Positions 6,246 through 7,865 of a stretch of DNA of 7,907 nucleotides are shown piece by piece. The stretch comes from a virus (taxonomy: Monodnaviria; Loebvirae; Hofneiviricota; Faserviricetes; Tubulavirales), in IMG/VR virus record IMGVR_UViG_2703718786_000001, positions 1-7,907 of that record, one strand, 5' to 3'. Each line of letters opens with the position of its first letter. Positions within the stretch are counted from its first letter, which is position 1. Position numbers and translations under genes: made by a program. The notes below the pieces were generated by a model. That model was not told the DNA's origin. It did no database searches and worked only from the letters and a program-made list of their open reading frames with translations.

Positions 6246-7865
6246 TCAGGAACGAAGAACAATAAAGAATGAAAGCATGGAGCCAATCAGCGTCATAATC
6301 ACCCTGAAAGTGGCCCTGACTTCATCGGTATCAAGCAGCACACAAAAAGTATCCAGTTGATAATCTTTATTCCAGATATTGAATGTAAAAACAGGACACT
6401 GACCCCGTGGAATTGTCAGTGAAAAATCACGCGCAGAAGGCCACATATCCCACAACGGAGAGATAAATGATGATGGCTCAGGTGATGAAATATCTGGCGT
6501 GGATACATCCGGTGCAGTACCAAAATCATTTGTCACGGTCACATTAACATTTACCGTGGCATCACCTGTTACCGTGGTACTGGCAGACCCTGTTCCGACG
6601 CCGGTTATCGTTCCGCTACCTGTTCCGGTACCTGTTCCGGTACCTGTTCCGGTACCTGTTCCGGTACCTGTTCCGGTGCCTGTTCCGGTACCTGTTCCGG
6701 TGCCTGTTCCGGTGCCTGTTCCGGTGCCTGTTCCGGTGCCTGTGCCGCTACCTGTTCCGGTGCCTGTTCCGGTGCCTGACCCCGTTCCGCCACTGGAGCC
6801 AGAACTGCCATTACCAGAAACTGGGGTAAAATCCGGATCAACAACCGGAGGCGTATATTTACCGCCAGATGATTCCGTGTCACCTTCCGGCGTAGGCGGT
6901 ATGGCTATTTCTCCTGTTCCGGTGAAACCACCGGAATCACCACCGGACATATCTACAGTCGAGCGATAATTATCAACATCAGAAGCAGTAAAATACAATG
7001 AAGACGATGAAACCCCGTCATAAGATGAAAGGCCATCTAACTGCTTTGTCAGTCCATTAAGGATATCGGCGATATCCTGCGAAGCAAGATTATTACCTGA
7101 AATAACTGGTGTGGAATAATCAGATGAAAACGGATTCTCAGTAACCGCTGCAATACAGGATGAGCTACCCCCTGAAGGTGTAAAAAGCACCTGTCCCTGG
7201 TCACAATAAGTATCAGAATCAGAACCTAATACTGAAGAATACACATATAAAGAACTTTCAGACCATCGACCTTTATACTTCGAAATATAGTAAAAAGTGT
7301 AACCTTCAAGAGAAGAAACAGTAGTCTTAGGGGAGTAATAGGAACGAGTCAGAGACGGAGAAGATTCAGCCGAAAGACAATTTAAAAGCTGCGAAGCCAC
7401 TGAAAAAGGAGATGTACTGATAACAGAGCCACAAGAATACATTGACCCAATCCAGACTTTCGACCCACTGGACATGGCAGGTGTCGAGAAAAAGGCATTA
7501 TACCCGTTTTTCTCAAGAGCCAGCTTTGCAATTTCTTCCGCAAAAGGTTTACCAACAGCATAAATACCAATACTGACAGTCGTTACACCCAGCCCATAAG
7601 CAAGCGTACTCCAGGTCATTGCCGAAGATGATATTCCAATTGAAGCCGCATAATTTGACGCAAAAGAAGCTGCCGCACGCGAATAACCGGAAAGCGTTGC
7701 AGATATTGCGGCTGCATCAGCACCAAGAGAAATCAGTTTACGGTTAATCACACCTGATAACTCAGATGTAAAAGTATTTGTTGCCAGTGAAGCATCAGCA
7801 CGGACATTACAGGAGAAAGACAGAGAAAATAATAAAAACGCTGTCATTGTTTTATTTAATTTCAC
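6246..7865 (-). CDS. Adsorption / minor coat protein pIII-like, about 539 aa, with an internal Gly-Thr repeat linker and C-terminal membrane anchor
   Basis: Preferred start is GTG at 7865 with GGGGGTGG upstream, giving the signal peptide [23 protein letters not shown]. Alternative starts are ATG 7847 and TTG 7877 (the tracked one). The protein has a Ser/Thr-rich N-terminal region, a GTGT... linker and a hydrophobic C-terminus ([20 protein letters not shown]). Position and architecture match the Ff and CTX pIII/OrfU. Confidence 0.75.
6589..6792. repeat. Tandem 12-nt repeat (ccggtRcctgtt; about 14 near-perfect copies at 6613-6780 plus degenerate flanks) encoding the Gly-Thr/Gly-Ser linker of pIII
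   Basis: Directly visible periodicity with only gta/gtg wobble between units. It produces shadow ORFs in other frames (PVPV... on plus, APEQ... on minus). Confidence 0.9.

Follow-up and report, generated by a model that had tools for sequence, protein, structure and literature searches.

The subject of this study is a tandem array of 12-nucleotide (nt) units encoding a Gly-Thr linker within the gene III-like open reading frame (ORF) of a filamentous phage (Tubulavirales), represented by the IMG/VR record IMGVR_UViG_2703718786_000001, whose positions 1 to 7907 constitute the window, that is, the whole 7907-nt stretch of DNA analysed here. With a probability of roughly 80%, this array can be regarded as a hypermutable, length-polymorphic and frame-preserving linker in a pIII-type protein, in which slippage or unequal exchange would add and remove repeat units and the encoded peptide would function as a spacer. 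The 543-amino-acid (aa) product of the ORF is itself very probably a tip or adsorption protein of the pIII type, as judged from its position, its architecture and its C-terminal domain. The initial annotation had supposed that linker length may vary between isolates, and this is indeed what was found: four window-type sequences carry four different lengths, and 26 copies of a sister type carry 12, so that copy number is clearly not identical everywhere among the relatives compared.

When considered at the DNA level, the array is delimited by Tandem Repeats Finder at 6610–6778 (period 12, 14.1 copies, 93% matches, no indels, score 268), and the only further array reported in the 7.9-kb window has a score of 31. 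The coding register lies on the minus strand at 6609–6776 and comprises 14 units, whose order can be written as AABAAAACACCCCD; seven are GGCACCGGAACA, five are GGTACCGGAACA, and GGTAGCGGCACA and GGTAGCGGAACG occur once each. Twelve of the 14 conform to GGC/GGT-ACC-GGA-ACA, the remaining two being Ser-containing variants, and the product is a (GT)n stretch with three Ser at residues 364–423 of the 543-aa ORF. It forms part of a 78-aa low-complexity linker of Gly, Ser and Thr (6579–6812, minus strand), predicted as coil with very low confidence (pLDDT) by AlphaFold2 (AF2). The earlier description of about 14 near-identical 12-nt units encoding (GT)n therefore agrees with both counts, and the span then given, 6589–6792, is a reasonable envelope when set beside the limits of array and linker. 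The word “perfect”, however, does not suit the units, which are near-identical at 93% matches, and a correction is due in that the array-bearing gene lies on the minus strand. In the rest of the gene, each of the four Gly codons and each of the four Thr codons is in use, ACC being the rarest of the latter; thus, the codon uniformity of the array points to recent common ancestry of its units and not to codon bias.

The unit is free of stop codons in every frame, and for this reason alone the array is also spanned by long ORFs that are antisense or out of frame. Two of these are by-products of the repeat, namely a (PV)n ORF at 6499–6969 (plus strand), which was rejected as a frame artefact, and an (EQAP)n ORF at 6605–6883 (minus strand). 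As a separate observation, seven places in the unannotated record OX376640.1 (Caudovirales sp. ct2KA10) match the array at ~77% (15852–16022 against window 6618–6788), and GT-coding repeats of this kind evidently occur, as such matches suggest, in phage genes that would be unrelated to the one described here.

The closest comparison is offered by the window-type relatives, found in an E. coli draft genome and in IMG/VR, whose N-terminal regions are 95–99% identical to that of the window protein. Among the four sequences of this type, whose N-terminal regions are 96–99% identical, linker length is 216 nt in L004, 234 nt in the window, 294 nt in L028 and 318 nt in L005 (L numbers designate the sequences compared). 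Relative to the window, L028 is longer by 60 nt (five 12-nt units) and L005 by 84 nt (seven units), while L004 is shorter by 18 nt. Over the 333 nt downstream of the array, a comparison covering the window, L004 and L005, there are only 0–1 differences. The unit strings, AABAAAACACCCCD in the window, AABAAAAAACACAACCACJ in L028 and AABACAABACCCIIAACECCD in L005, share fixed array ends around a variable interior.

A larger sample is available for the sister type, an E. coli prophage type whose N-terminal region is ~66% identical in protein to that of the window and whose C-terminal domain is nearly identical. A total of 26 gene copies were compared, 18 of them from 17 complete E. coli genomes (two being tandem copies in one genome) and eight from IMG/VR contigs. 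Their linkers range from 201 to 345 nt (67–115 aa) and fall into 12 lengths and 22 distinct array alleles, on a background in which the flanking 1377 nt of the gene show a median of 7 and a maximum of 17 differences; three further metagenome contigs, parsed apart, have linkers of 255 nt each, inside this range. Copies with identical flanks form five groups, and in four of these the arrays differ: L021 and L025 have linkers of 327 and 297 nt, L009 and L010 of 273 and 219 nt, and L001 and L016 of 237 and 255 nt, while L012 and L022 are equal in length and differ in the order of their units. Each of the 325 pairwise differences in length is a multiple of 6 nt, 234 being multiples of 18 nt as well, and the full-length copies are all in frame, which bears out the earlier expectation that length changes would keep the reading frame.

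The expectation of 12-nt steps, on the other hand, stands only in part. Within the window type it describes L028 (+60 nt) and L005 (+84 nt), but not L004 (−18 nt, in a contig that carries NN inside the array), nor the sister lineage, where steps are mostly of 18 nt and some of 6 and 12 nt. The peptide there is the same, but its coding unit is of 18 nt (ACAGGC-ACTGGA-ACGGGT or a Ser variant of it), and the first 12 nt of this unit differ from the 12-nt unit of the window by one base; the arrays of the two lineages would thus be related and rebuilt with a different period. Sister unit strings such as abbbccdedf, abbbccdedddf, abbbcccdedddf and abbbbcccccdedf differ in their run lengths and retain their ends. 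Finally, the same allele was recovered from independent sources in three cases (L011 and L026, L012 and L023, L006 and L009), which argues that the lengths are real and do not reflect assembly noise.

Taken together, the changes involve whole units, keep the frame, affect runs of identical adjacent units between stable ends and outpace substitution in the flanks; this pattern points to slippage or unequal exchange, of which runs changing between fixed ends would be the classic signature. In the mechanism proposed, strand slippage during replication, or unequal recombination between the near-identical 12-nt units, would lead to the gain or loss of whole units; as the unit length is a multiple of three, the frame would be kept and the length of the spacer alone would change. 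At the protein level, the flexible, uncharged and hydrophilic Gly-Thr spacer would tether the divergent, presumably receptor-binding N-terminal part to the conserved C-terminal domain, which would anchor the protein in the virion and the membrane. At ~0.35 nm per residue, the contour length of 67–115 residues amounts by our own arithmetic to ~23–40 nm. The linker peptide is almost purely Gly, Thr and Ser in both lineages despite the 12- and 18-nt DNA units, and the shortest linker in both is of 67 aa. This constancy and this minimum are compatible with selection for a long, flexible spacer whose exact length would be near-neutral, and the effect of spacer length may well be close to neutral within the permitted range. 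In Ff phages, the distance between N1-N2 and C must be maintained (PMC10175506), and it is for these phages that the literature backs the earlier statement on linker length and infectivity.

It is nevertheless important to stress the observations that weigh against a hypermutable array. The length variation is one seen between genomes and contigs, and the array is not unstable at the shortest timescale, given that the three annotated tandem prophage copies of E. coli RIVM_C037884, where the search gave four matching places, carry a single gene III protein identifier. When folded as single-stranded DNA (ssDNA), the array has no stable or notable structure (z −1.9, centroid unstructured), and thus none that would specially promote slippage; hairpins formed from the GGTACC and CCGG palindromes, considered as a driver of instability, were dropped for the same reason. 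In addition, the window-type sequences are apparently all short-read assemblies, in which a repeat of 170–250 nt can be mis-sized, and the L004 contig carries NN inside the array.

These last points lead to the simplest alternative, that the length differences are assembly artefacts in which a repeat of 170–350 nt has been collapsed or expanded while the true copy number is uniform. Such behaviour does occur at this locus, since the E. coli draft contig L036 ends (at its position 4315) exactly at the start of the array, window position 6780, and most of the 30 listed members of two E. coli homologue protein clusters (184 and 162 members) are named “partial”; the short-read character of the window-type sequences fits as well. 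The sister-type data, however, come largely from complete, closed genomes, the alleles differ by exact whole units in otherwise clean sequence, the alleles shared by independent genomes and metagenomes were noted above, and changing internal runs between fixed ends form a biological pattern and not a random one, so that this explanation is quite improbable. A phase-variable contingency locus, in which the array would switch the tip protein on and off, would likewise account for a highly mutable simple repeat in a surface-protein gene, and in the metagenome contig L032 the frame is indeed lost at the array, although coverage there is ~1x. With units of 12 and 18 nt, both multiples of three, differences that are all multiples of 6 nt and full-length copies in frame, a switch of this kind was rejected and is hardly conceivable.

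Two further alternatives accept the variation and read it differently. In one of them the array would be an adaptive tuning knob, its in-frame mutability being kept because different spacer lengths suit host capsule or O-antigen layers of different thickness. The retention of Gly, Thr and Ser across the change of DNA unit, which suggests selection on the peptide, would suit this idea, as would the lower limit of 67 aa in either lineage and the diverse clinical E. coli that serve as hosts; if it were true, host range would shift on the timescale of single outbreaks, and the persistence of (GT)n through the turnover of its DNA unit would be a footprint of selection. A spread of 67–115 aa among near-identical phages is, however, equally expected from neutral drift within wide limits, and a Gly-rich region that was naturally longer is reported to have brought IKe no selective advantage (Bruno & Bradbury 1997, as cited in PMC7307601); the tuning knob is accordingly judged unlikely. 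In the other, the array would mainly be a recombination junction at which co-resident phages swap N-terminal modules, copy-number change being a by-product. The nucleotide identity between window and sister type is ~63% upstream of the array and reaches 81, 92 and 98% in consecutive stretches of 90 nt downstream of it; for several prophages, the megablast match ends at 6776–6790, where the array has its edge; homologues in Salmonella have just the C-terminal domain in common with the window, with similarity starting at the Gly-rich linker; and polylysogeny and tandem copies are common (PMC4266046). Yet the 12- and 18-nt units of the two lineages offer poor homology for exchange, ~300 nt upstream of the array are still similar, with matches reaching 7094–7100 in 11 genomes, so that the boundary is not exactly at the array, and arrays differ between copies in which both flanks are identical, where no exchange with another phage is needed. 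A role chiefly as a junction is thus a secondary and rather unlikely possibility. These comparisons nonetheless place the linker where an N-terminal module that evolves fast or can be exchanged meets a conserved assembly module, which is the arrangement expected of a receptor-binding tip protein.

The assignment of the gene as pIII, made in the initial annotation, is well founded as regards gene order and architecture and less so as regards family membership, there being no match to a curated family and only a weak one to the profile of M13 pIII. On the circular map, the gene (6246–7877) sits after the major coat gene and directly before those for DUF2523, Zot and the secretin, and the homologues examined, which come from E. 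coli, Salmonella and one further enterobacterial genome, all have these neighbours in this order. As for architecture, a signal-peptide-like N terminus (the putative signal sequence, recognised by inspection, follows KLNKT) leads into a large N-terminal region, which a disordered Gly-rich linker connects to a conserved C-terminal domain. The latter defines a family of which 1.8 billion library proteins contain at least 201 representatives (E ≤ 0.001); each of the 150 hits listed matches at its very C-terminal end, and most of these proteins are of 400–650 aa. Within the domain, C52 and C70 are invariant and 18 residues apart. The AF2 model of the domain (101 aa, pLDDT 81) has strands at 55–59 and 62–66 and a helix at 76–100 (pLDDT ~90), this hydrophobic C-terminal helix ending in FFIVLRS; the modelled cysteines are found at the base of the beta-hairpin, with the long terminal helix next. 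In f1 pIII, a hairpin bounded by Cys354 and Cys371 is followed by the L4 linker and then by the M helix (PMC10175506), and the domain modelled here would be laid out as described there for the C domain of f1 pIII.

Sequence-based evidence for this relationship is less favourable. An hhalign comparison of the C-terminal domain with the C terminus of M13 pIII places both Cys and the terminal LR in register, but the match is weak (probability 6%, E 0.006); Pfam has no family for this protein nor for 10 distant relatives of its C-terminal domain; the PHROG matches (phrog_7187, 3942 and 11232) are of not known function and concern the C-terminal part only; and a Foldseek search with the C-domain model found nothing in PDB and gave no significant hit. 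These four results count against the assignment. Against BFVD, the same model gave weak hits only, inovirus attachment proteins among them. The C-terminal domain has no tblastn match in GenBank phages, its profile does not hit pIII among PDB sequences, and phmmer of the full protein against PDB returns low-complexity matches only. The full-length AF2 model, built from a 7-sequence alignment, is unusable (pLDDT 39.8). Searches with the full-length protein were swamped by low complexity (8000 candidates, 5 true relatives), and those with the N-terminal or C-terminal domain alone in a word-indexed database contributed hardly anything more; no record was identical to the window protein, and a scan of GTDB representative genomes with the N-terminal domain found nothing. 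As an observation on that region, it contains a conserved 21-residue hydrophobic stretch (window ~7520–7590, minus strand; residues ~88–110 of the 533-aa protein), preceded by Ala/Ser-rich segments predicted as helices and also conserved in P0002, a homologue with 41% identity; in this the region differs from the beta-rich N1 and N2 domains of Ff pIII.

Several known systems show a comparable organization. In the UPΦ filamentous phages of Enterobacterales, no gene varies more than gene III, of which 229 genomes contain 95 protein variants, and the variation lies mostly in the number of Gly-rich GGGES repeats that form a linker between the N- and C-terminal domains (PMC7307601). Both are enterobacterial filamentous prophages in which the gene III linker varies in copy number, those of UPΦ being often in tandem at dif (PMC7307601); UPΦ, however, has the GGGES motif and is related to IKe and I2-2, whereas the linker here is (GT)n with a coding unit of 12 nt, no similarity between the protein and the N domains of IKe or Ff is detectable, and the phage is without a near match in the phage collection. 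The direct precedent for a length change of the slippage type is offered by IKe, where an in-frame expansion of the gene III linker arose in a phage stock, in the account of Bruno & Bradbury (1997, Gene 184:121) cited in PMC7307601; according to the same account, the motif there is of the GGGS type and the change was observed experimentally, while here it is deduced by comparison. The Ff phages (f1, fd and M13) share with the protein described here a signal peptide, one or more N domains, a flexible, disordered linker and a C domain that here too would be of the Cys-hairpin-Cys type with a terminal membrane helix (PMC10175506), as well as the location of the gene between gVIII and gVI-gI-gIV and, in their case, an infection process for which the reach of the linker matters (PMC10175506). 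They differ in having two (E)GGGS linkers, and the N-terminal region here is unrelated to theirs and the similarity in C-domain sequence marginal. Outside phages, the Drosophila period gene contains a coding (Thr-Gly)n minisatellite with natural length polymorphism in which the frame is kept; as it encodes a eukaryotic clock protein of other function, it serves as an analogy for the behaviour of the repeat only.

Repeat-built linkers seem to recur across the protein family with independent DNA units, as indicated by more distant homologues. In L033 (7137–7294), which encodes P0002, the linker is built from a 42-nt unit that is present in 3.7 copies at 97% identity and encodes units resembling STGTGTGTSTGEGT, and the Salmonella homologues P0004 and P0005 have short GS/GT linkers of 33 and 35 residues, respectively, from GSGSGTGDG to GDGDDD. 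In two loci, L013 (17917–20888, E. coli AF60) and L034 (2905–5198, Salmonella), the gIII-gVI-gI-gIV block is joined to a different replication module, whose protein is either a 667-aa “replication endonuclease” or of the Rep_trans type, and a transposase of the IS110 family lies next to it; this arrangement suggests module exchange, possibly with transposase-mediated integration. The coordinates of the features of the window are collected in Table 1.

Table 1. Features of the window, in the order of the circular map from the replication gene onwards, with the parts of the gene III-like ORF listed below it.
Feature	Position	Strand	Basis
G2P-type replication protein (rep)	1316–2551	−	ORF list, Pfam/PHROG
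Helix-destabilising ssDNA-binding protein	932–1303	−	ORF list, Pfam/PHROG
Major-coat-like protein	274–585	−	phrog_2186/6548
Gene III-like ORF, 543 aa from TTG at 7877 or 533 aa from ATG at 7847	6246–7877	−	ORF list
N-terminal region: signal-peptide-like start and ~330 aa; divergent, presumed receptor-binding	6813–7847	−	Identity comparisons
G/S/T linker, 78 aa	6579–6812	−	Anchors F[TK]PV[SG]G and TTVTG, conserved in all relatives
Tandem array, 14 × 12 nt (GGY-ACC-GGA-ACA)	6609–6776	−	Tandem Repeats Finder, codon table, unit counts
Conserved C-terminal domain, 110 aa	6249–6578	−	Two invariant Cys, beta-hairpin, terminal hydrophobic helix
DUF2523 (pVI-like)	5941–6228	−	Pfam PF10734, E 4.9e-9; phrog_974 “minor head protein”
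Zot (pI)	4871–5929	−	ORF list, Pfam/PHROG
Secretin (pIV)	3615–4874	−	ORF list, Pfam/PHROG

The first and last 16 nt of the window (1–16 and 7892–7907) are identical (GAAAATCACGGTCAGC), a direct terminal repeat which shows that the window represents a complete circle, with a genome length of 7891 nt; the gene III-like ORF together with its upstream region crosses the junction of the circle. The structural genes are all on the minus strand, a helix-turn-helix (HTH) gene lies on the opposite strand, and the gene order is the canonical inovirus order gII-gV-gVIII-gIII-gVI-gI-gIV. Whole-window DNA searches against GenBank phages, for near as well as distant relatives, gave no informative or near relative. 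Prophages in 165 of 5426 complete E. coli genomes are ~90% identical to the window over about half its length, and contig L036 (DABDCP010000077.1) is 97–99.7% identical to the window phage, so that its host is E. coli.

At the regulator end, the listed ORFs 2312–2857 (plus) and 1316–2551 (minus) overlap by 240 nt, and L036 annotates a 91-aa HTH gene and a 375-aa rep gene at the corresponding place; by these gene calls, the true starts would probably be near 2582 (MKWLEDY...) and 2443 (MNFDWLK...). Such starts would probably leave a short divergent promoter region between the regulator and replication genes, as in CTXΦ-like phages. The canonical E. coli dif site is absent from the window at up to 3 mismatches. 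A possible XerC/XerD-type site lies at 3313–3345 (minus strand) in non-coding DNA beyond the secretin gene, and consists of AGTGCGTATAA, an 11-nt spacer and TTATGTTGAAT; its arms have 2 and 1 mismatches to those of E. coli dif, and its spacer is of 11 nt rather than 6.

As to integration, the filamentous prophages CUS-1 of E. coli K1 and YpfΦ of Yersinia pestis are found in tandem at dif (PMC4266046), and they resemble the window phage, by description and as a lead only, in being enterobacterial inoviruses of ~7–9 kb with a divergent regulator and with replication, morphogenesis and secretion modules. Among the related prophages, those of the L012 genome (E. coli RIVM_C037884, NZ_CP086622.1, 2726691–2757233) form at least three head-to-tail copies of ~8 kb each and adjoin an ISNCY remnant, a SIR2 gene and hipBA. 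Related prophages thus occur in tandem next to hipBA, and the P0002-bearing prophage in another genome abuts hipBA too. In E. coli K-12, hipBA is close to dif; a dif site was not located at the related prophage loci.

Copy-number variation of Gly-rich gene III linkers has already been published for UPΦ and IKe, and in principle nothing new is described here; what is new is mainly the Gly-Thr composition, together with the 12- and 18-nt units and the uncharacterised protein family. The array provides a natural example of a hypermutable in-frame linker in the presumed attachment protein of filamentous phages of E. coli that belong to an uncharacterised family, related prophages of which occur in clinical isolates. 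As it breaks short-read assemblies (among the 30 listed members of the two clusters, 346 proteins in all, most are “partial”), gene III would be under-annotated or truncated in draft genomes. The array is also usable as a high-resolution typing marker for these prophages, and linkers of 67–115 aa on near-identical backbones constitute a natural series in which spacer length can be related to filamentous-phage infection.

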